64,000 nucleotides of DNA from Elusimicrobiaceae bacterium (GTDB lineage Bacteria > Elusimicrobiota > Elusimicrobia > Elusimicrobiales > Elusimicrobiaceae): the NCBI GenBank assembly GCA_017501565.1, contig JAFVWP010000137.1:1381-65380 (forward strand), written 5' to 3'. Positions 53,215-64,000 of this stretch are shown here, in pieces. Position 1 is the stretch's first letter, and each line of letters opens with the position of its first letter. The position numbers and the translations under genes were made by a program. Below the pieces are notes generated by a model. The model did no database searches. It was not told where the DNA came from and saw only the letters and a program-made list of their open reading frames with translations.

Positions 53215-54407
53215 AATAAACCCGCCTTGGCAAAAATTTGGCGCACGATATGAGCCGGGCTAAAAGACTCCAAAGGTTCGTTTTTAATTTGTGAATTTCC
53301 AACCAGGATTTCGGCTAAGGCCTTTTTAATATCCGCTGCATTATTTCGGCAAAAGTAAAAACGCTGAAACGGCTCTAAAAAGCGGCGCAGTACTTCCTGT
53401 TCAGCCGGAGTGCCGTCTAAAATAAACAGCACTTTTTTATACGTTGCGGCATATTGGTAAATTTTCCCCGGGATTTGCCCACCCTTTTTGTTAGCTAAAC
53501 AGACCAAAATGCCTGTTTCCTGTTCGCGGCGCTTCAAATCCGCCAAGTCCAAGCGGGGATAAATGGAAATTTTTTCCGTAGGCTCAAATAAACTTTCCGG
53601 AGATCCGCAAATACAAACGGAAACATTGCTTTGTTTGGCAGCTTGATAAAAAGGAGTCAAATCCCGCGAAAAAGGAAAATAATCGCCGAAATAGCCGAAA
53701 TGATGGTTCGGGGCGGTGGCTTGGGCTTCTTTGTAATAATAAGGCAAAGCTACCCAATCCATTTTACCCGCCGAATCCGTGAACAATTCTTTTTGATATT
53801 GAAGGGTTAAAGGGCTTACATAAAAGACCCGGTCGCAAGCGGATAGCAATTCTTTTTCCATGGTAAATTGTTGCTTGTTTTTTTGGCGGTTGTATAAATC
53901 CAAATACCAAGGGTCTTCCCAAATTTCTATATGTTTTTTACAACGCACTTTTTTCTTTTTAATCAGTTGTACCGCCACCCAATGGCTATGCACCGGGGAA
54001 GAAAGAGAAATCACCACGTCATAATAGGGCAGAGCATTAAAACCGCGCACTGCGTTTTTGGCCCAAGCTCCATGCAAGCCGAAAGGTCCGTAAAAAGAGT
54101 TGACGGCTTTTCTTAGATAAGCAATGATATTGGTTTTCCAACTTTTACGTTGGTTTTGCAGATTGTTTTTGGTTTGTTTCCAAGAAGACGGCCGCATAAA
54201 GCGGTAAAGAAAATTATCGGGAAAGTAACAATATTGTGCTCCTTCGGGCAAGACCATGGAATCATCTGTCACTTGGCCTTTTTCTTCCACACAAAGCACT
54301 TGCACTTGATGTCCGTTTTCCACCAACCCGCGAATATATGCCAAATGGCACAAATTGGCAGAAGAATTAACCCGCAGACAGCTGCCCGCCACCACTAATA
54401 TTTTCAT
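53211..54407 (-). CDS. Putative GT-B glycosyltransferase
   Basis: MKILVV start, DVVISLSSP, PGKIYQY near the C-terminus; locus context. Confidence 0.65.
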   Translation of the reverse strand: MKILVVAGSCLRVNSSANLCHLAYIRGLVENGHQVQVLCVEEKGQVTDDSMVLPEGAQYCYFPDNFLYRFMRPSSWKQTKNNLQNQRKSWKTNIIAYLRKAVNSFYGPFGLHGAWAKNAVRGFNALPYYDVVISLSSPVHSHWVAVQLIKKKKVRCKKHIEIWEDPWYLDLYNRQKNKQQFTMEKELLSACDRVFYVSPLTLQYQKELFTDSAGKMDWVALPYYYKEAQATAPNHHFGYFGDYFPFSRDLTPFYQAAKQSNVSVCICGSPESLFEPTEKISIYPRLDLADLKRREQETGILVCLANKKGGQIPGKIYQYAATYKKVLFILDGTPAEQEVLRRFLEPFQRFYFCRNNAADIKKALAEILVGNSQIKNEPLESFSPAHIVRQIFAKAGLL

Positions 54408-55522
54408 AAAGTTCCCCCGGGCATAGACTCATAAAATTTTTGCATTTGCAGGGCACTATCCGAAATATCAAATCCTTTTTGTTTCAAGAGTTCTATGCCT
54501 TGTTTTCGCTCAAAACAAACTTGTGTTAACAGCCGTTGGGCCCATGCTTCGGGGCCCGCTTCCAGCGGTAAACGGCCACTGCAAGGCAACAGAACGCTTT
54601 CATCGGTAATACCGCAAGACAACACACAAGCTAACCCCGCCGCTTGCGCTTCTACCGCTGCTAACGGAAGCCCTTCATAAAAAGAGGGCATACAAAACAC
54701 ATCAAACGCTTGTAAAAGTGCGGGGGTATCTCGGCGCGCCCCTAAAAATTTCACTTTATTATCCAACCCCATTAGGCGGACCTTTGCCTTGATTTTCTCT
54801 TCCAAAGGCCCACTACCCACAAGCAAAAGAACGCACTGCGGATTTAACTTTACCGCTTCGGCAAAAGTATCCACTAAAAAAGTATGATTTTTTTGCTCAT
54901 TGAAGCGACCGATATGCCCGATCACAAAAAGATTTTCCACCCCCAATTCTTTGCGTTTTTCGGCACGCGCTTGAGGGGTGTAAGTAAACTTTTCCAATTC
55001 AATGGCATTGTTAACAAGGGTAAATTTTTTGCCGAAATAAAACTTGCCCGCCGCCGTAGAACACGCCATTTGATGTGTTATTAACGGCCGCACCGCCCCG
55101 AGCATCAGGCGGTTGCGCAAAGCCGGTAAAGCCTTGTCGCTGTACTGCGTGCCATGGGCATGCTGAATAATAGTTTTCGCGCCAAAAAACTTAGCTAAAG
55201 GAAAAAAAAGCAAGTTTAAATGCGTAATGTGCGAATGAATCGTCAAGTAGCGGTGTTGACGAAAAAAAGCCACCGCAGATTTTAGAAAACGAAAGGGATT
55301 TTTCCCGATATTCGGCAATTGTTCCACGCGCCCGCCCAAGGCTTCTATTTCGGCCTGACAGGAGTGACAGGTAGGCAATAAAAACAAATAATCAAACTGC
55401 ACCTTGCTTCTGTCCAGGCGGCGGTGCCAATTTAACACCACTTGTAAAACCCCGCTGCCCACATAGGCGCTGGAAACAATTTGCAAAATCCGCACAGGAG
55501 TAGAATTTTCTTTTTTATTCAT
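54404..55522 (-). CDS. GT4-family glycosyltransferase (EpsF/CapH-like)
   Basis: HIGRFNEQKNH, PSFYEGLP...VEAQAAG; start at MNKKENS. Confidence 0.9.
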   Translation of the reverse strand: MNKKENSTPVRILQIVSSAYVGSGVLQVVLNWHRRLDRSKVQFDYLFLLPTCHSCQAEIEALGGRVEQLPNIGKNPFRFLKSAVAFFRQHRYLTIHSHITHLNLLFFPLAKFFGAKTIIQHAHGTQYSDKALPALRNRLMLGAVRPLITHQMACSTAAGKFYFGKKFTLVNNAIELEKFTYTPQARAEKRKELGVENLFVIGHIGRFNEQKNHTFLVDTFAEAVKLNPQCVLLLVGSGPLEEKIKAKVRLMGLDNKVKFLGARRDTPALLQAFDVFCMPSFYEGLPLAAVEAQAAGLACVLSCGITDESVLLPCSGRLPLEAGPEAWAQRLLTQVCFERKQGIELLKQKGFDISDSALQMQKFYESMPGGTL

Positions 55523-55524
55523 TT

Positions 55525-56349
55525 TTAACGCAGAACTTTTCGGTAAAATAAACCGCGCCACGAATTGGGCAATAATACTTGCACGCAGAAACGTACCCCT
55601 ACGTTGTGCCCATGCGTCAGCCAGGAAATAAGCCCCAACTGCCGCAAACGGCGGCTCAAGGCGTAATTGCTTTTGAAATATTTCCACCCGCCGCGGCGGG
55701 CATACATATTTTCATCTACGCGGGCATTGACTAATATGTTAGGCAAATTTGCCATCGGGTATTTTGCCGCCGCCAAACGCGCCCACAAATAATAATCTTC
55801 CAACAAATAAAAAGGCTGATAACCGCCCACAGCCGTAACAGCGCTTTTCTTAAACATAACGCTCATGTGATTAAAAGGGCAACGCTTTTTGAGAAATTTT
55901 AAAATATCAGCCGGTTTTTCCGGTACGCGGCGCACCGATAGGGGCGTTAAAGTTGCGCTATCTGTCTCCTGCACCCAGCCGCCCAATACGGCTATATCCG
56001 TATTTTGTTTCAAAAAAGATATTTGTTGGGCAAAACGTCCGGGCAAGGAAATATCATCGGCGTCCATGCGCGCTACCCAGGGGCACGAGCAGACCGAAAG
56101 ACCTTTATTCAGTGCTGCGCCCAACCCTACATTTTTGTCTAAAGGCAGTAAGCGTATCAAAGGGTTTTTCTGCGTAAAATCTGTTAAAACTTTTTGCAAA
56201 TCCGCCCCGATAGGGCCGTCGGTCACCACCACGATTTCCTTTGGCAAAAGGCTGTTTTGCAAAACACTATCCAAAGCTTGGGCCAGCCATAGGGGGCGGT
56301 CCTTAGCGTAGACAGACATCAAAACAGAAAAAGAAAAATCCTGTTTCAT
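55525..56349 (-). CDS. GT2-family glycosyltransferase (AmsE-like)
   Basis: FSVLMSVY, VVTDG, NVGLG.AL, ARMDADD, FNHMSV and EDY.LW. Confidence 0.92.
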   Translation of the reverse strand: MKQDFSFSVLMSVYAKDRPLWLAQALDSVLQNSLLPKEIVVVTDGPIGADLQKVLTDFTQKNPLIRLLPLDKNVGLGAALNKGLSVCSCPWVARMDADDISLPGRFAQQISFLKQNTDIAVLGGWVQETDSATLTPLSVRRVPEKPADILKFLKKRCPFNHMSVMFKKSAVTAVGGYQPFYLLEDYYLWARLAAAKYPMANLPNILVNARVDENMYARRGGWKYFKSNYALSRRLRQLGLISWLTHGHNVGVRFCVQVLLPNSWRGLFYRKVLR

Positions 56350-56548
56350 ATCCTAAATTATATGAATTTTTACTGCCCCTACGTACGCGTTTGCGGGGTT
56401 TCAGCCAAGGCCCTTTACATTTATGCCGCCCGATGCAACAAATCATATAATCTAAAATTTGATATTCACAAAAAAGATTTTTTATTTCATACTGCTAATA
56501 CAGGGAGAAGGGCGGCAACACTATATTTATCCGCTCTTAAAAAGCAGT

Positions 56549-57643
56549 ATGAAAAAAATAACAGCCTTATTGGCAGCAGCCACATTTACGGCTACGGCCG
56601 TTTCTCCGGCTTTGGCATGTACGGGGATTTCTCTGTCCGCCGAAGACGGAACCCGTATTCAAGCGCGTACCATTGAATGGAGCGGATACGATTTAAAGGC
56701 CAAATTGGCCGTTTGGCCGCGCGGTGTGAAAAAAACGTCTTATACACCTGAAGGAAAAAACGGCCTGAGCTGGACTACCCGCTATGGGGTAGTGGGGGCC
56801 ACCACGATCATGGACGAGTTTATTACCGAAGGTATTAATGAAAAGGGGCTTTCGGCGGGGATTTTCTTTTTTTCCCATTATGGCAGTTTGGCGCCGTACA
56901 ATCCTAAAAAAGCCAAACAATCGGTCAGCGATGCTGAGCTGGTCCCGTGGATATTGTCTAACTTTGCTTCGGTAGATGAAGTATTAAAACATCTTAAAAA
57001 GATAGATATTATTCCGATTGCCAAACCCGACGAAAAAGGTAATTATAATACCGGACATTGGCGCATTGCCGATGCCAGCGGACGCAACATTGTATTAGAA
57101 ATCACCAACCGCGGAGAACGCAAAATCTATGAAAATAAAATCGGTGTGTTAACAAACTCTCCCGATTTTGCTTGGCATTTGGGCAACTTGAACAATTACA
57201 TCAATCTCATGCCGGGCACGATACCCGCCAAAACCTTTGGCGGAGCGGATTTATTTTCGTTGGGGTCCGGCTCGGCGCTGTTGGGCATACCCGGTGATTT
57301 TACTCCGCCATCGCGCTTTATCCGTGCGTTCTTTTGGTTGCATGGTTCGCGCACGCCTGCCGATAAATACGGGGCAGTCACACAGGCTTTTCACATCTTA
57401 AATGCGTTTGATATTCCGATAGGGGCCGAGTTCGCACCGGACCAACCGATTCCGAATATACCCAGCGCTACCCAAGTGACCTGCGTTAGCGACACCACCC
57501 ATCCGGCGTTTTATTACCGCACTATGTATAATTCTCAAATCCGCAAAGTGGATTTGACCCAAATAGACTTTAAAAAAGTCCCGTACACAACAACAGCTTT
57601 GGACGAAGATCCGAAAGAACAAATCAAAGAACGGACTTTCTGA
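56549..57643 (+). CDS. Secreted Ntn linear amide C-N hydrolase (penicillin V acylase/bile salt hydrolase family)
   Basis: Signal peptide ALA|C places Cys at the mature N-terminus; ARTIEW, GINEKGL, TNSP and PGDFT..SRF. Confidence 0.9.
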   Translation: MKKITALLAAATFTATAVSPALACTGISLSAEDGTRIQARTIEWSGYDLKAKLAVWPRGVKKTSYTPEGKNGLSWTTRYGVVGATTIMDEFITEGINEKGLSAGIFFFSHYGSLAPYNPKKAKQSVSDAELVPWILSNFASVDEVLKHLKKIDIIPIAKPDEKGNYNTGHWRIADASGRNIVLEITNRGERKIYENKIGVLTNSPDFAWHLGNLNNYINLMPGTIPAKTFGGADLFSLGSGSALLGIPGDFTPPSRFIRAFFWLHGSRTPADKYGAVTQAFHILNAFDIPIGAEFAPDQPIPNIPSATQVTCVSDTTHPAFYYRTMYNSQIRKVDLTQIDFKKVPYTTTALDEDPKEQIKERTF

Positions 57644-57655
57644 TCCGCACAATAC

Positions 57656-57688
57656 AAAAAGGCCCCTTTGCGCAAGGGGCCTTTTTTT
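57656..57688 (+). terminator. Intrinsic terminator
   Basis: AAAAAGGCCCCTT-N5-AAGGGGCCTTTTTTT. Confidence 0.8.
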
Positions 57689-57755
57689 GCGGGTGAAAAT
57701 AGCTTTTTATTTTCTTTTGTATAATCTAACTAGCAAAAAACACCAGGAAATTTTT

Positions 57756-58361
57756 ATGAAGAAAATATTTGCATTATTATTGGGGTTAAATTTTTTGTCC
57801 GGTTGTACGGCTTTTTGTTTAAGCAAAGCAACGGCAGCACCGAATCGGGATTTTGAAGATAGATTACCCTATTTACAAGCGGTTTTTTTAAATGAAGAAT
57901 CTTTAGAAAATTTCAATCCCGAAGCAGAGTTTGCTAGGGCAGATGACCCCATGGCTGAGAGATTTTACCGCGAAGTGGAAGCGAACTTAATTGAACCGGG
58001 AGAAAAAAAGGGATATTTGGTATTACTGCCACAGATGAATATAGCCCGAAACGGAGCATCTTTATATACGTTTTTGTCTGTGGTTACGTTAGGGCTTTCG
58101 CCGGCTTTAGGCTTACCGATCACGACGTTCACAAGCGTTACTGATTTGGAATTAAACGTATTGAATGCCCAGGGCGAATTGATAAAACAATATACTTCGC
58201 AAGCGTTCGTTCAAAATAAAGTCGGCTTCTATCACGGCGATTGCAATAGTGCGCGCAATTGTTATACCAAAGTCGCCTGGGAAGGCTATGAAAGGGCCTT
58301 AGACAACATTATTCAACAAGTTTACAAAGACAGGGCCTACTTAAGAGAACAATTAAATTAG
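57756..58361 (+). CDS. Hypothetical lipoprotein
   Basis: Lipobox LSGC after MKKIFALLLG. Confidence 0.7.
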   Translation: MKKIFALLLGLNFLSGCTAFCLSKATAAPNRDFEDRLPYLQAVFLNEESLENFNPEAEFARADDPMAERFYREVEANLIEPGEKKGYLVLLPQMNIARNGASLYTFLSVVTLGLSPALGLPITTFTSVTDLELNVLNAQGELIKQYTSQAFVQNKVGFYHGDCNSARNCYTKVAWEGYERALDNIIQQVYKDRAYLREQLN

Positions 58362-58414
58362 TGCTTTTTTTCGGTTTCAAAACGCGTTCTATTGGCCCAT
58401 TTTTTCAACGCTAT

Positions 58415-58690
58415 TTAATGTTGCAACTTGTTAAAAAGTTCTTTAATCTCGGCAATTTTTTCTTGGGCAGCATTTTTATTGTCAAAAGAATCCGCCACAC
58501 ATTTTTCCAAGTGGGTAGATAAAATATTTTTTTCTACGGATATAATTGCCGAGCGTACCGCTTTTAATTGAATCAGGATTTCGGGACAATACCGCTGCTC
58601 ATCTATCATTTTTTTAATACCTTCCAGCTGTCCGATCACTCTGTTTAAGCGGGGAAGTTCGGCCTTATGGCAAAGGTGTTTGTTTTCCAT
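58415..58690 (-). CDS. csoR: CsoR-family metal-sensing repressor with a Cu(I)-type fingerprint
   Basis: RLNRVIGQLEGIKKM; Y34-C35, H60, C64 and E81. Confidence 0.92.
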   Translation of the reverse strand: MENKHLCHKAELPRLNRVIGQLEGIKKMIDEQRYCPEILIQLKAVRSAIISVEKNILSTHLEKCVADSFDNKNAAQEKIAEIKELFNKLQH

Positions 58691-58709
58691 AATTTTCTCT
58701 CATTTCTTC

Positions 58710-58740
58710 TATTTCCCCGGAGATATTATCCGGGGAAATA
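58710..58740. repeat. 12-bp stem hairpin between the metallothionein-like ORF and csoR
   Basis: TATTTCCCCGGA-N7-TCCGGGGAAATA; no U-tract follows it on the minus strand. Confidence 0.85.
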
Positions 58741-58750
58741 TATTCTCATA

Positions 58751-58861
58751 TTATTTTTTGTCTGCCGGTTTCGGACATTTGCAAGTGGTTCCGTCGCATT
58801 GGCAGTTATCGCCACAAGTGCAAGGATCACAAGTGCATTTCGGATTTGAACATTTAGCCAT
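58751..58861 (-). CDS. Metallothionein-like peptide (36 aa, 9 Cys), missed by the ORF track
   Basis: MAKCSNPKCTCDPCTCGDNCQCDGTTCKCPKPADKK*; SD TAAGGAGGT 4 nt before the ATG. Confidence 0.88.
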   Translation of the reverse strand: MAKCSNPKCTCDPCTCGDNCQCDGTTCKCPKPADKK

Positions 58862-58873
58862 ATTTACCTCCTT

Positions 58874-58926
58874 ATACCCTTGCGGGTATCTGTCTATATT
58901 ATATACCCCCAGGGGGTATATGTCAA
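58874..58926 (-). promoter_or_regulatory. Consensus sigma70 promoter with two CsoR-type operators
   Basis: TTGACA (58926-58921), N17, TATAAT (58903-58898). Palindrome ATATACCCCC-A-GGGGGTATAT (58901-58921) and ATACCC-TTGC-GGGTAT (58874-58889). Confidence 0.9.
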
Positions 58927-59099
58927 GAAATATTTTACATTATGCAAAAAAGCGTGGTTAACCCGAAAAAGATTTTACTTACTTCTTTTCAGATGTTTAG
59001 TATTTATCCGATAAGGAAATTGATATTAGTGGGGTTATTTGGTATAGTGAAAGGGTAGTTTAACCCATTCAAACCCGGTTGGTGTAAAGGATAAAGTTT

Positions 59100-59684
59100 A
59101 TGAAAAAAATTTGGTTAGTTTTTGGAGTTTTATTTTTTGTTTCCACGAGTGCATCAGCCCAACTTACATCTGGCTTGATGAACTACGAAGTAACGCATAA
59201 TTTGTTGCCGAAGGACAAATGGGAAACATCATTTAAAAAAGCAAATCAAAAAGCAGTAAATCAAATTCGGGCCGAAAAAGGCGCCGCTGCTGCTCAAGAA
59301 CACTTAAAAAGTCTCTTAGATTACTACAAAAAATTTGCAGAAGATTCTACTCAACCCGAAGTGGTAAGAGAAAAAAGAATGGCTTCTTATAAACTGCTGA
59401 TTTCTTTTACCGAACAACATTCCAAACTAGTAGAGCTTGCCGCTCAAGAAAAACCGGAAGAAATTGTTTTGCAAAATCTGCGCTATCAAATGGAAGCTCT
59501 GTACCATTCTTGGGCGGAAATAAAGACGTTAGATGGCAGTATGGCTTATCATATAAGGGAAATTGTCAGAGGGCATAAATATTGGATAGAATGTCTTGAC
59601 ACCGCTGTTTCTTTATATGGAGTGGTAAACGAAATTCACAGAATAACCATTCGGATTGAAGGCGAAGGAGAAAATTTCTTTTAG
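59100..59684 (+). CDS. Secreted helical hypothetical protein (paralogue of 35762..36328)
   Basis: Signal peptide ending ASA; shares the EI...H.YWI......SL.G C-terminal motif. Confidence 0.75.
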   Translation: MKKIWLVFGVLFFVSTSASAQLTSGLMNYEVTHNLLPKDKWETSFKKANQKAVNQIRAEKGAAAAQEHLKSLLDYYKKFAEDSTQPEVVREKRMASYKLLISFTEQHSKLVELAAQEKPEEIVLQNLRYQMEALYHSWAEIKTLDGSMAYHIREIVRGHKYWIECLDTAVSLYGVVNEIHRITIRIEGEGENFF

Positions 59685-59951
59685 AGTGTAAAAGCGCGGT
59701 ACAGGGATTGTCCTTTAAAACAGAAAGTTTATGTAGAAAAAGGACTTTTGCAAAGGATTAAATCAAAGGTGTGATTTTTATTCGTCGGCAAGAAACGAAA
59801 AAAAAAATTTAAAAACGCAGAGAGCTTTCGGGAAAACAATCGGATATTTTCTTTTTTAAAAAATCCCCCATCTTTTTGCTGTTTTTTTATTGAATCTTTC
59901 TTTTTATCTCATACTTTTGCTATAATAAATAGGTAGTCAAAACCGATTTTA

Positions 59952-59988
59952 GCCCAGTTGGCGCAGGGGTAGCGCGTTCCCTTGACAT
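59952..59988 (+). pseudogene. 5' half of tRNA-Val(GAC), truncated at the end of the anticodon loop
   Basis: GCCCAGT-TG-GCGC-AGGGGTA-GCGC-G-TTCCC-TTGACAT, followed by AGCCC instead of GGGAA. TGnTATAAT lies at 59918-59926. Confidence 0.7.
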
Positions 59989-60026
59989 AGCCCCCTCAGA
60001 AGTCACAAATTTATCATTTTTTATAC

Positions 60027-60060
60027 AAATCTCCGACGAAGAATCGGAGATTTTCTTTTT
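60027..60060 (+). terminator. Intrinsic terminator downstream of the tRNA fragment
   Basis: AAATCTCCGA-N7-TCGGAGATTT then TCTTTTT. Confidence 0.7.
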
Positions 60061-60334
60061 TAAGAAAAAATTTACAAATCCTCTGTTTTTTTGCAGTTTT
60101 TTGCTGTTTTTTGAACCTTTATGTAAATTTTTTGTAAATTTTTTTCTGGACCGTTTAAAAAATTTAGGGTTTAATTTAGATTAGTTAAATTAAGCATTTT
60201 AGGTTATTTATTGTATGCTCCCCACTTTTTCATTCGGTTATTAAAGATGTGTAAAAATATAAAAAACCAATAGCACCTGTAAAAACTTGATAAAAATAAA
60301 GACTTTTTACATGCTAAACATCTGATAAATCAGT

Positions 60335-61486
60335 TTATTTGAGAATACTCCACCATGGTTTAGCCATAACCTGCGGATGTAATGGCATCTCTGTAGAATT
60401 TAAAGATAAGATAGCCCTATTGGTGGCAGGCAAATCAACATTCTTTAATTTTCTGGCAAAGTCACTATGAATAGTCTGAGTGGCTTTGATTTCATATAAG
60501 TCTATGCTTTGGCCTTTATCTATAACCAAATCCGCTTCCACTTGATTTGAATCTCTGTAAAAATACAAATTATGTCCGGTGCGATTATAGATATTCTCTT
60601 TTACCGCTTCCATAATAATCATATTTTCAAATATAGCCCCTGCCATAGGTCCTTTAAGCAAGGTATCTGCATCTTTATAACGAAGCAAATATGCCAACAG
60701 CCCCGTATCCGTAAAATACACCTTGGGGGTTTTGACTAGTCTCTTGCTTGCATTATTAAAATAAGGGCGAAGCAAATAAATAATACGGCTGGATTCTAAA
60801 ATAGAAATCCAATTTTTAACCGTAGCATTGGCTACCCCACAGTCATTGGCTAAGTCTTGCATATTGAGTAAATTGCCCACTCTGGCAGCTAATAATTCTA
60901 AAAACCGTTGGAAGGTAGCAATATCATGAATATTTTTTATTTGACGAACATCTCTTTCTACATAAGTAGATAAATAACTGCCGTAAAAGAGCTGTAAGTC
61001 CATCTCTTGCGTATTAGGAGTAGGATAAAACCCTTTAATAATTTGCTCAAAACAAGGAATGGGGTCTTGCGGTACCTTGTTTAACTCTTGAAAAGACAAT
61101 GGCAAAAGCTCAAATAAAGCAACTCTTCCTGCCAAAGTTTCGGACATACCTTGCATTACATTAAACATTTGAGAACCCGTTAGCAGAAACCGTCCGTTTA
61201 CCCTTTCTTTATCAATGTGCATTTTGATGTAGCTCAAAAGTTCCGGAATATATTGAATTTCATCAATAATAACGGGAGTTTGTAAGGTGGAAACAAATAA
61301 AGCCGGATCTTTTTTGGCGATGTTTCTGACGCTCAAATCATCAAATGTCACATAGTGATAGGTAGGGAAAAGCTGCTTAAGCAAAGTAGATTTTCCGGTC
61401 TGACGCGGTCCGGTCAGCACAACAGCAGGAAATTGTTGTACCGCAGATAACAAACTTTTTTCTAGGGTTCTATGTATGTATTGCAT
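60335..61486 (-). CDS. AAA ATPase with DUF4143 (PD-(D/E)XK-like) C-terminus
   Basis: GPRQTGKS, IIDEIQ, LLTGS, KRLVKTPKVYFTDTGL and FYRDSNQVEADLV...YEIK. Confidence 0.9.
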   Translation of the reverse strand: MQYIHRTLEKSLLSAVQQFPAVVLTGPRQTGKSTLLKQLFPTYHYVTFDDLSVRNIAKKDPALFVSTLQTPVIIDEIQYIPELLSYIKMHIDKERVNGRFLLTGSQMFNVMQGMSETLAGRVALFELLPLSFQELNKVPQDPIPCFEQIIKGFYPTPNTQEMDLQLFYGSYLSTYVERDVRQIKNIHDIATFQRFLELLAARVGNLLNMQDLANDCGVANATVKNWISILESSRIIYLLRPYFNNASKRLVKTPKVYFTDTGLLAYLLRYKDADTLLKGPMAGAIFENMIIMEAVKENIYNRTGHNLYFYRDSNQVEADLVIDKGQSIDLYEIKATQTIHSDFARKLKNVDLPATNRAILSLNSTEMPLHPQVMAKPWWSILK

Positions 61487-61492
61487 ATTAAA

Positions 61493-61521
61493 AGTATAAT
61501 TAAATTTATGATAAATGTAAA
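61493..61521 (-). promoter_or_regulatory. Sigma70 promoter, leaderless configuration, for the AAA-DUF4143 gene
   Basis: TTTACA, N17, TATACT, then 6 nt and the ATG; no SD. Confidence 0.65.
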
Positions 61522-61674
61522 GTGTATTTTATAATTATCATAAAAAATACTCCATATGCTTATCATTTGTCCTAAAAATATGCTGAAAATCGATAATTTA
61601 TCCTAAATTTAGGATAAATATAAAGTCAACTTGTAAATTATCATAAGAATATAGCAAATCGGTAATTTCTGTTC

Positions 61675-61729
61675 AATGTCTACTTTTCAGCCATGAATGT
61701 CTACTTTTGAGGTCCTAATGTCTACTTTT
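61675..61729. repeat. Three 13-bp direct repeats with a 21-bp period (iteron-like)
   Basis: AATGTCTACTTTT at 61675, 61696 and 61717. Confidence 0.9.
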
Positions 61730-62574
61730 TGGATATATGGCTGATATATGGCACTTGATTAAAGAGAGGGTTTTTTTCTTCTAAAAAACTAAATGCCTGT
61801 TTTCTAAAAAGAGATAAGGGCGGAGAGAACACGCCCGCCCTTATATTATATTATGTCTTTGTAAGTAAGATAAAAATAATAACTTCAACTATATTCTCTA
61901 ACCTAATGTATCCAGTCTGTTTTCCCAATTGAAAAAATTCAATAAAAATATGCTTTAACATTAATCAAATATTATTTTTATTTAACCTTGCATCAATAGT
62001 TTTTCTATTCAAAAAAGAATATTTTTTGATTTTATAACAAAAGCAATTTATGTTTTCATTATGATTATTTTTAATCCGATTCTAGTTTCTTTATCCATCT
62101 GATAAAAGCCTGTTATAACTTATTTTTAAGTAATTAAATTTATTTTTATCTATTGTTTAAAGTTATGACAAATTAATCATTTTTTGTAGTTGTTATGATA
62201 ATTTAAAAATGAAATTTATATTTATCCGAATTTTAAGATTTTTTGATAATTTTCAATGGAATCTCCTTTCTACAATCTGTCATAAACCTATTTTTGTACA
62301 TAAAATATAATCCAATCATAATCTTCTGTTATTTCTAACAAAATATCATTTGAAAATAAACATTTGCAATAAAGTTAATTTAAATTTAAAAGACTTTAAC
62401 ACAGGAGACAGAGTCAAAATGGAGAATAATAAATCAAAACAAGAATCCAAAGCCCGTTGGACAAGGCTATTAAAACCCACTTTTAAGACCAAGGCAAGGA
62501 AAACCAAGACTCGTTGGACTATTTTATTGAAATAGAAGGTAGGTTAGTTATTCTGTAGCCCTAGCAGATAAATA

Positions 62575-64000
62575 TTAGTTGGAATCCTGTGTATGAGGTT
62601 TCCAATCTTTATAATATTCTTTTATTTCCTGTAATTCTTGACGATGGGTTAAATCTGGTTGCTGTAACAACTGCTCAATAATATCAAAGATATTTTCTTT
62701 TCCCCAAGTCTTCAAAGTATCATTCATAGAGTAACCCTGTGTACTCCTATATAATGTTTCACCTATTGCTTCCCAAAATATAAGTTCGTCTTCTTTAAAT
62801 ACAACTATAGAGTCTGCTTGTCGTTTTTCTAAATAATGGGCAGGATATTTGAAGTCTCTTAACCAGTCATAGAATGCAGCAAAATTATAGTAAGATTGTT
62901 TATAATAAAAACAATCCGATAATACATCTTTAGCATTCCAGTTTTGTTTTTGCAAAAAACCGATTAATTCTTTTGCCTCTTCAGAATTTTCTTGTAACAG
63001 AATGTGATATAAATAAATTTTATAGCAAATAGAATTAACCTCAAAAGCTATTTCTAATAAGGTCTGAGAGGGTATTTTTTTGTCTTTAACTATTTCTTTT
63101 ATTTTTTCAAAAATAGAATCCAGTTCTCCTTTTTTAAAGGGAGTATTTTGCTGATTTATTAAATTTTTCCATGCAAAAGGGAGATAATTTAAAGATTTTA
63201 AATCTAAATTTTGTAAATGGAAGGAAATGTAAGAAAAGAAGCTACCTAATCCTTCTTGATTTTTCACAAGAAAGGCTTGAAGGTTTTCTACAGCGACATC
63301 CTGATTATGCTCTACTTTCAAATTATTCCACAAAGCATCTAATACTTTATCTGGAATTGTAGCTGGTGATAGGGTGTGATTAAAATACCTGTAAAAATAG
63401 TTCTTACTATTTAAGGGTTTCTGAATATAAGAAACGGCCTTGTGCCTTTTTTCGTATAGAATTTCAAAATTGGTATAGGAGGAACCTTCTTTATCATATA
63501 AAAAAGTTAAATAAGCATGATTTAGTATGATAAATATTGGTTTTAAAAAATCTCCTCTTTCCGGATATAGGCTATACAGTGAGGAAAAATAGTTATCCCA
63601 CTCTTTAAAAGTTTCTTCCTGAGTATTAACATTCTTATTATACGCATCTGTTACCCAAAATCTTTCGTTTTGGAAGATTTTATTATAGACCTCAGGAAAA
63701 GAAACCGATAAAATAGTTACTAGAAGAAACTGAAAAGGATCTACTTCTGTTTGTACTTTTTCTTGAAAAAAGGAATTCGTGAAACCTACTAAGATTTTTT
63801 TAGCTTCCCTTAAATTTTTAAAATTTAAATTCGGAAAATTTTCCCCTAAATCATTTCCTTGAAGAAATTTAATATTTTTTTCTTTTTCAATAGACTCTAA
63901 GTTTTTAATAAAAAAATCTCTAATGAAGTAAGGGTGGGGCGCCGGTAATTTAATTATATTCGTTGCGATTTTATCAATATAACCTGAATAATAGGAATAT
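62575..64000 (-). CDS. KAP-family P-loop NTPase, C-terminal part (5' end outside the window)
   Basis: The frame of ORF 62575..63333 stays open to the window edge. Manual translation gives YIDKIATNIIKLP, NLREAKKIL, FLLVTILSVSFPEVYNKI and NYFYRYF, matching post-Walker-B KAP patterns. The Walker motifs are not in view. Confidence 0.65.
   Translation of the reverse strand, partial: YSYYSGYIDKIATNIIKLPAPHPYFIRDFFIKNLESIEKEKNIKFLQGNDLGENFPNLNFKNLREAKKILVGFTNSFFQEKVQTEVDPFQFLLVTILSVSFPEVYNKIFQNERFWVTDAYNKNVNTQEETFKEWDNYFSSLYSLYPERGDFLKPIFIILNHAYLTFLYDKEGSSYTNFEILYEKRHKAVSYIQKPLNSKNYFYRYFNHTLSPATIPDKVLDALWNNLKVEHNQDVAVENLQAFLVKNQEGLGSFFSYISFHLQNLDLKSLNYLPFAWKNLINQQNTPFKKGELDSIFEKIKEIVKDKKIPSQTLLEIAFEVNSICYKIYLYHILLQENSEEAKELIGFLQKQNWNAKDVLSDCFYYKQSYYNFAAFYDWLRDFKYPAHYLEKRQADSIVVFKEDELIFWEAIGETLYRSTQGYSMNDTLKTWGKENIFDIIEQLLQQPDLTHRQELQEIKEYYKDWKPHTQDSN

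Follow-up and report, generated by a model that had tools for sequence, protein, structure and literature searches.

A putative autoregulated metal-sequestration cassette pairing a nine-cysteine peptide with a CsoR-family repressor in gut bacteria

The window analyzed here is a stretch of 64,000 nucleotides (nt) from an Elusimicrobiaceae bacterium (GenBank assembly GCA_017501565.1, contig JAFVWP010000137.1, positions 1,381 to 65,380 of the forward strand); positions given below without further label are those of the window. On its minus strand, a gene for a 36-amino acid, nine-cysteine metallothionein-like peptide is followed by a gene for a CsoR-family repressor. Judged from its sequence and from its relatives in other genomes, this module is probably (we would say about 0.8) a self-contained, autoregulated two-gene cassette for metal sequestration. 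From the promoter to the end of the repressor gene, it consists of the following elements.

58921..58926, minus strand: -35 hexamer TTGACA, part of a 12/12 promoter match.
58901..58921, minus strand: putative operator 1, a perfect 21-nt palindrome, ATATACCCCC-T-GGGGGTATAT, which occupies the promoter spacer and reaches into both hexamers.
58898..58903, minus strand: -10 hexamer TATAAT, which begins with the last three bases of operator 1.
58874..58889, minus strand: putative operator 2, ATACCC-GCAA-GGGTAT, at about +2 to +17 from the inferred start site.
58867..58873, minus strand: Shine-Dalgarno sequence AAGGAGG, 5 nt before the ATG.
58751..58861, minus strand: gene for the 36-amino acid, nine-Cys metallothionein-like peptide, stop codon included.
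58710..58740, minus strand: intercistronic hairpin of 12 base pairs (bp) without a U tract (-19.2 kcal/mol, z -3.75).
58415..58690, minus strand: gene for the CsoR-family repressor, 91 amino acids (PF02583; H8, Y34, C35, H60, C64, E81).

The small open reading frame at 58861..58751 (minus strand) is present as originally predicted, with cysteines at C4, C9, C11, C14, C16, C20, C22, C27, and C29 (four CxC pairs plus C4). With 36 amino acids, 25% Cys and no His, Phe, Tyr, or Trp, its composition is that by which metallothioneins are operationally defined (small, 15–30% Cys in CxC/CxxC, no aromatics), and it is the genome's only hydrophilic Cys-rich small open reading frame. A word-indexed protein search with a 41-amino acid frame, the peptide plus five upstream codons, returned five homologs of 79–90% identity over the aligned core. 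Scanning one genome per species with a back-translated pattern detected relatives in 118 species genomes, the best 80 of which were taken as loci L024–L103. Their hosts are Elusimicrobiota, Gastranaerophilales, gut Alphaproteobacteria, and a few Bacteroidota and Actinomycetota, and identity across phyla is 55–90%. When 76 distinct sequences are compared over their first 22 codons, which align without gaps, sequence pairs differ on average by 0.135, 0.129, and 0.499 per site at codon positions 1, 2, and 3, the third value being about four times higher. The Cys columns are all Cys, written with a mixture of TGT and TGC codons, the lone exception being one copy with a Tyr codon, and stops are abundant in the other reading frames. 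From these patterns, the 36-amino acid frame is a real gene under selection. Its shortness, which possibly places it below gene-calling cut-offs, and the fact that an exact-sequence look-up of the window peptide returned no record would suit a chance reading frame or an untranslated csoR leader, but the third-position excess, the Cys residues kept invariant through synonymous changes, the stops in other frames, the strong Shine-Dalgarno sequence, and the conservation across phyla leave that idea very little room. In one alphaproteobacterial copy (L047:3001-3117), two Cys-to-Tyr changes (TGC to TAC) occur at otherwise invariant positions; either the copy is decaying or the assembly is wrong here.

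The conserved core of the peptides reads M-x-K-C-[SN]-N-P-x-C-x-C-x-x-C-x-C-G-[DE]-N-C-x-C. The tails are variable, extra CxC-G-x-x-CxC modules occur in many Alphaproteobacteria, and the family ranges from 33 to 63 amino acids and from 9 to about 20 Cys. It is widespread among bacteria from the guts of humans, livestock, and rabbits, with a single 40-amino acid variant present on at least 1000 contigs, and public records label its members "unknown" or "hypothetical protein." A profile search of 1.84 billion representatives gave only four weak matches (E 1e-5 to 4e-4), a low yield because short Cys-rich profiles carry few bits; the pattern scan yielded far more. The window peptide matched 0 families in Pfam and NCBIfam at E<=1, PF02069 (SmtA/BmtA) included, and nothing in the PDB at E<=10; among the longer relatives, the best model match was Metallothio_5 (E 0.053, below its cut-off). 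A literature search by motif, or by metallothionein in combination with CsoR, cation diffusion facilitator (CDF), or the host taxa, found no paper describing the family, subscription journals lying outside its coverage. As far as sequence can tell, the peptides are an undescribed family of bacterial metallothionein-like proteins, of a functional kind that is already known. The original prediction had set the peptide apart from SmtA/BmtA and MymT, and it indeed matched neither the SmtA/BmtA model nor any other metallothionein model. It had also likened the Cys segments to plant metallothionein domains, a resemblance that has no detectable sequence support and is rejected for lack of a model match.

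The protein encoded by the second gene matches PF02583 over profile positions 3–78 of 78 (E 7e-26; 90.9 bits, cut-off 22.8) and possesses the Tyr-Cys/His/Cys/Glu set that had been read from it before (Y34, C35, H60, C64, and E81). In alignments, C35, H60, and C64 fall on the ligand positions of 4m1p, 4adz, and 2hh7. A CsoR-family gene lies directly downstream of the peptide gene, on the same strand, in 71 loci. The gap is usually 0–65 nt, and eight of the 71 have a gene of about 0.9–1.2 kb between the two. All 71 peptide-linked regulators share H8, Y34, C35, H60, C64, and E81. Their N-terminus is variable except for the motif [NH]-P-x-H-x3-[ILM]-P-R-L-N-R, whose invariant His is residue 3 in the shortest versions (the CDF-linked clade). 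The genes around the module are wholly different between lineages, so the conserved unit is the peptide–regulator pair itself. The comparison of synteny and Cys conservation in relatives that had been proposed alongside the original prediction was thus positive (118 species genomes and 71 regulator-linked loci).

The palindromes follow the regulator across genomes. We searched the 100 nt ahead of each peptide gene for an operator-like repeat, ATACC-N3-9-GGTAT, allowing no more than one mismatch in the arms. Of the regulator-linked loci whose upstream DNA was long enough, 70/70 have it (37 of the 70 have two sites), as does one of nine loci without a linked regulator. The background rate is 1% (28 of 2768 random windows from the same loci). 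The usual layout in relatives is a TTGACA, a palindrome whose right arm runs into TATAAT and, often, a second site about 30 bp downstream. By this comparison, the view that the two palindromes behave as the regulator's operators is supported, and so is the earlier claim that the peptide and the CsoR-family repressor form a unit. Across the whole host assembly (1.47 Mb, 92% complete), the strict pattern ATACCC-N1-8-GGGTAT occurs at these two sites only, and reversed-pattern controls gave 0. Because the strict sites are confined to the module's own promoter, the regulon appears to be the operon itself. The description of the module as minimal is therefore fair for this genome, the operon being the sole place with the operator. 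Among the extra strict-pattern sites in five other genomes, those looked at, to the exclusion of three more in G049 that have other spacings, were one intragenic site (L130) and one with no open reading frame (L119); neither pointed to another regulon member from which the metal could be told. The L119 site belongs to a second unit of TTGACA, two operators, and a Shine-Dalgarno sequence in a complete Gastranaerophilales chromosome (G047, L119:1490-1570). Neither a start codon nor a reading frame follows this unit, which may be the remnant of a duplicated cassette or the promoter of a non-coding RNA.

The promoter TTGACA-N17-TATAAT, the second site ATACCC-N4-GGGTAT, and the strong Shine-Dalgarno sequence had all been pointed out in the original prediction and are all in place, the promoter being the sole 12/12 match in the scanned 1.3 kb. 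The spacer palindrome is likewise perfect, 21 nt long, and located as described; its center base on the coding strand is T, the A reported earlier being the base of the plus strand. The two putative operators are about 30 bp apart, center to center. A gap of 60 nt, with the hairpin inside, separates the peptide gene from csoR, whose Shine-Dalgarno sequence is weaker than that of the peptide gene. The hairpin is found in this genome only and is absent from relatives with gaps of 0–65 nt. It has no U tract and was not scored as a terminator, and that reading is rejected; it could act as a stabilizer of the mRNA 3'-end or as a damper of repressor expression. Three more CCCCGGA-N-TCCGGGG hairpins occur in the genome (C38, C96, and C125), and the intercistronic one may be a small repeated palindromic element.

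These features suggest how the cassette would work. Without excess metal, the repressor would bind both ATACCC-N-GGGTAT operators and shut a very strong promoter, which would stay shut because operator 1 fills the spacer and operator 2 covers the transcript start. As the cytoplasmic level of a thiophilic metal increases, the metal would bind the inter-subunit Cys35/His60/Cys64 site, probably with the invariant His8, and the metal-bound repressor would leave the DNA. The binding step is suggested by the layout and the co-occurrence across genomes, and the metal-driven release by what is known of the family. The peptide would then be made in a large burst and the repressor would increase modestly, as expected from a consensus promoter, a strong Shine-Dalgarno sequence for the peptide, a weaker one for the repressor, and the hairpin between them. 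The metal would be chelated by the nine thiolates of the peptide. Their number equals that in the nine-Cys domain of animal metallothioneins, which accommodates three divalent ions or about six Cu(I), and by analogy the peptide might take up roughly as many. Repression would return as free metal falls. Lineages that add CxC modules presumably raise the capacity of the system.

The rest of the host's metal toolkit appears small. Neither an HMA domain nor a CDF was found in the assembly, and neither an ArsR/SmtB gene nor a metal-type MerR sensor; the sensor families found are a short MerR without the Cys loop and one Fur-family gene. The observation made earlier, that no copA or copZ is nearby, is thereby confirmed in a stronger form. 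Since the operator occurs only here and no HMA protein, CDF pump, ArsR/SmtB, or metal-type MerR sensor was found, the response seems to consist entirely of buffering by the peptide. The genome's only P-type ATPase (G000:C104:4865-6817; L104:1057-3009) matches TIGR01525 at 4e-97, below its cut-off. This P1B-like protein has no HMA domain and carries S-C-P-L where CPC/CPx is expected, and no operator lies in the 200 nt upstream of its gene.

Four points weigh against a metal-sequestration cassette of this kind. The loci are kin, so that the counts overstate their independence, although they span at least three phyla. The peptide matches no model or solved structure of a characterized metallothionein, and its assigned function therefore rests on composition and context. 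The assembly being 92% complete, the absent pumps and sensors may be unassembled. His8 lies 12 residues before Gly20, which we take to be five residues nearer helix 1 than the W ligand of RcnR/InrS (17 residues before the conserved Gly in InrS), and this offset makes its role as a ligand a guess.

The neighbors of the module in other genomes bear on the metal. None of the 71 linked loci has an adjacent copA or copZ, and a P1B gene lies within 3 kb, non-adjacent, in only two of them. Sixteen related operons hold a CDF transporter instead, in two gene orders.

Peptide–CDF–regulator: L020, L028, L033, L034, L039, L040, L042, L078.
Peptide–regulator–CDF: L058, L062, L082, L089, L091, L094, L099, L101.

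The operon CDFs score as ZitB (1e-48 to 1e-52) over DmeF (1e-28 to 1e-29) and have HxxxD in transmembrane helices 2 and 5 (TM2 and TM5; H-D/H-D), a His-rich N-terminus, a His-rich loop, and a Cys-rich C-terminal tail, e.g., C-x-x-C-C; by these sequence features they are of the zinc/cadmium/cobalt type. The regulators linked to them make up one alphaproteobacterial subclade plus L078 and are 50–58% identical to the window regulator. Four canonical csoR genes in related Elusimicrobia are only 35–42% identical to the window regulator. Three of the four have no N-terminal His, and three of the four adjoin P1B ATPases (L110, L111, and L112; genomes G034, G024, and G006), of which that of L111 carries CPC and that of L110 an HMA-type CxxC N-terminus. 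Neither this canonical csoR type nor an HMA domain was found in the window genome.

The original prediction took the module to be specific for Cu(I). The Cu-type set of C-H-C, Tyr, and Glu is indeed there, but Cu(I) itself is not established, given the invariant His8, the lack of copA/copZ, and the Zn-type CDFs. As the sensed metal, Zn(II)/Cd(II), with or without Cu, has in our judgment nearly even odds; Cu(I) only is possible, at odds below even, and Ni/Co or another metal is improbable.

In the refinement that we rate slightly higher, at somewhat less than an even chance, the module would respond to Zn(II)/Cd(II), possibly Co, through a four-coordinate His8/Cys35/His60/Cys64 sensor, with an M(II)3Cys9-type cluster in the peptide, and would switch a Zn-exporting CDF in relatives. 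The presence of the CDF in both gene orders in 16 loci, its ZitB-like score with HxxxD in TM2/TM5 and His-rich N-termini and loop, and the invariance of His8 in 71/71 regulators are in line with this, as is the finding of no other Zn-excess sensor family in the genome. However, the CDF linkage is limited to the one alphaproteobacterial subclade plus L078, the window clade being without a CDF; the conserved Tyr/Glu pair is a hallmark of Cu-CsoR; and we know of no characterized CsoR-family Zn sensor. Precedent comes from Bradyrhizobium, where C-H-C CsoRs are induced by Zn and Cd (PMC5057107), and from InrS, which binds Zn and Cu tightly in vitro, its selectivity being set by the cell's other sensors (PMC4235346). 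Taken to its full extent, this refinement would make the peptide-paired regulators the first Zn(II)/Cd(II)-sensing clade of the CsoR family (His8/Cys35/His60/Cys64), controlling a new metallothionein family and, in some lineages, a ZitB-like CDF; here the module would be the sole defense against excess zinc, acquired by cross-phylum transfer in the animal gut. We regard this whole chain as conjectural, with the odds clearly against it.

A strictly Cu(I)-specific module, in which an x-C-H-C CsoR controls a Cu(I)-thionein as RicR does MymT, is a possible but doubtful refinement. The Cu(I)-CsoR signature is C-H-C plus a Tyr/Glu second shell, which is tied to Cu(I) allostery (PMC11672702, section 3.2.4.1), and the window regulator has this second-shell pair in Tyr34 and Glu81. 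The operator matches the consensus of Cu-responsive CsoRs, ATACCCC-N3-GGGGTAT (PMC5057107). Among solved structures, the family profile matches the Cu(I)-bound GtCsoR 4m1p best; the single sequence matches the Ni sensor InrS 5fmn best (55 bits), in an alignment that begins after the N-terminal His of InrS. The fusion of the Cys motif to a CopY/BlaI-type repressor in two Actinomycetota also favors Cu(I). Bona fide Cu sensors, however, are described as having no N-terminal ligand and, as hallmark neighbors, copA and copZ (P1B-1 CopA, CopZ; PMC11672702), whereas copA/copZ stand beside the module in 0/71 linked loci, Zn-type CDFs are found in 16 instead, and the N-terminal His is invariant. The low identity of the copA-linked CsoRs of related Elusimicrobia and the lack of that His in three of the four also speak against Cu(I) specificity. 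On its sequence, the subgroup of the window regulator thus departs from the described Cu-CsoRs in two features, its neighbors and its N-terminal His, His8 being a candidate ligand only.

It is quite unlikely that the peptide is something other than a sequestration thionein, either a chaperone that partners the sensor or a sacrificial thiol buffer against electrophiles or reactive sulfur. Its very tight pairing with the regulator would suit a sensor accessory, and two members of the CsoR family, CstR and FrmR, sense signals other than metals (PMC11672702). But the regulator has His60 together with both Cys, and not the CstR pattern (C-x-C without His) or that of FrmR (P-C-H-x), and CstR- and FrmR-type sensing is rejected on this ligand pattern. 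The consensus promoter and strong Shine-Dalgarno sequence point to bulk expression, and the addition of CxC modules in relatives, up to about 20 Cys, scales capacity as a metal sponge would. Sequestration therefore remains the preferred function of the peptide.

Two further arrangements of the Cys motif were seen in relatives. In two Actinomycetota metagenome-assembled genomes (MAGs; L055:3001-3297 and L056:3001-3426), a repressor of the BlaI/CopY winged-helix type (PF03965 5e-15; CopY_TcrY 1e-7) carries the motif C-S-N-P-K-C-T-C-x-P-C-L-C-G-D-D-C-x-C fused at its N-terminus, as though the thionein module had been made into a metal-sensing domain. In Flavobacterium agri (L097:2181-3066) and a Bacteroidetes MAG (L100:1736-2563), peptide relatives of 22–49 amino acids, with no CsoR partner and no operator, lie after an AraC-type regulator that has an N-terminal CxxC segment.

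From its sequence context, the module looks like a cassette that has moved horizontally among gut phyla, because its G+C content is low, its flanks differ from those of its Elusimicrobiaceae relative L024, and it was not found in 24–30 same-genus genomes. The G+C content of the two-gene stretch is about 0.36–0.39 against a genome mean of 0.452, within a region from 57.6 kb to the window end (57600–64000) in which it is 0.18–0.41, down from about 0.45–0.51. What L024 shares with the window is the two genes, at 84–86% identity, and nothing else; there the module adjoins a gene that, read from its N-terminal sequence, is type I restriction-modification methylase-like. The peptide was not found in 24 genomes of the same genus, only two of which have a CsoR-family gene, both distant, and a DNA search with positions 57650–59700 against 30 same-genus genomes gave nothing significant and no usable synteny. 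In the regulator tree, the two Elusimicrobial sequences and two metagenome contigs group beside the Gastranaerophilales clade with joint support of 100/99, and the Alphaproteobacteria lie on the other side. The related loci come from MAGs whose labels may be wrong: "Brachyspira sp. CAG:484" groups with Gastranaerophilales in this tree. A tblastn search of the peptide against plasmids and phages gave no match, although the low-complexity filter may hide some, and an ARAGORN scan of 54000–64000 detected no tRNA. At 56459–57643 on the plus strand lies a gene of the choloylglycine (bile-salt) hydrolase family (PF02275 E 3.6e-63) with a signal/lipoprotein-like N-terminus, which is consistent with a gut habitat.

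Characterized bacterial metallothioneins are few, namely the SmtA/BmtA relatives, MymT, and a few one-offs, and the present peptides would add a widespread gut family that is invisible to Pfam and NCBIfam. The sensor subgroup is at odds with the textbook picture of Cu-CsoR, and with it one could cleanly test how metal specificity depends on the ligand set and on the cellular context. Livestock receive high doses of both Zn and Cu in their feed, and a mobile cassette for sequestration could for this reason affect how well gut communities tolerate metals. With 33–63 amino acids and 9–20 Cys, the peptides are simple to synthesize and assay.

Compared with known systems, the window regulator shares with the canonical csoR-copZ-copA operons (BsCsoR, GtCsoR 4m1p, and SlCsoR 4adz) the PF02583 domain, the C-H-C ligands, the Tyr/Glu shell, and an operator of the ATACCCC-N-GGGGTAT type. 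It differs from them in the lack of copA/copZ in 71 loci, the invariant His8, and a thionein output with or without a CDF, and the canonical copA-linked csoR genes of related Elusimicrobia form a separate lineage. InrS of Synechocystis, an H-C-H-C Ni(II) sensor, resembles it in having Cys/His/Cys plus an N-terminal His, and its lineage, the Cyanobacteria, is sister to the Gastranaerophilales, which carry most copies of the module. InrS, however, has Pro and not Tyr before the Cys, and controls a Ni exporter, not a thionein. DmeR-DmeF and RcnR-RcnA are alike in that a CsoR/RcnR-family repressor controls a CDF, as in the related three-gene operons; their sensors are H-C-H-H whereas the window regulator has C64, they include no thionein, and the CDF of the related operons is ZitB-like, not DmeF-like.

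Among the thionein systems, SmtA/BmtA with SmtB is a metal-inducible thionein with its own repressor gene, as the window module would be, and Zn/Cd would be shared as well if the Zn(II)/Cd(II) refinement is right. The window peptide, in contrast, has no PF02069 match, no His ligands, and no zinc-finger-like fold signature, and SmtB belongs to the ArsR family, of which no gene was found in the genome, whereas the window repressor belongs to the CsoR family. The functionally closest system is RicR-MymT of Mycobacterium tuberculosis, in which a CsoR paralog represses the gene of a small Cu(I) metallothionein. Common to both are a CsoR-family repressor, a small Cys-rich cytoplasmic peptide, G/C-tract palindromes, and, on the reading preferred here, sequestration rather than export. 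The window peptide, which gave no model match, is set apart from MymT by the description of the latter in the literature (PMC11672702, PMC5057107 ref. 22), and the clade of the window regulator differs from RicR in its extra invariant N-terminal His and in the links to Zn-type CDFs in relatives. MymT belongs to a regulon that is dispersed; the operon in the window is dedicated to the peptide and its repressor.

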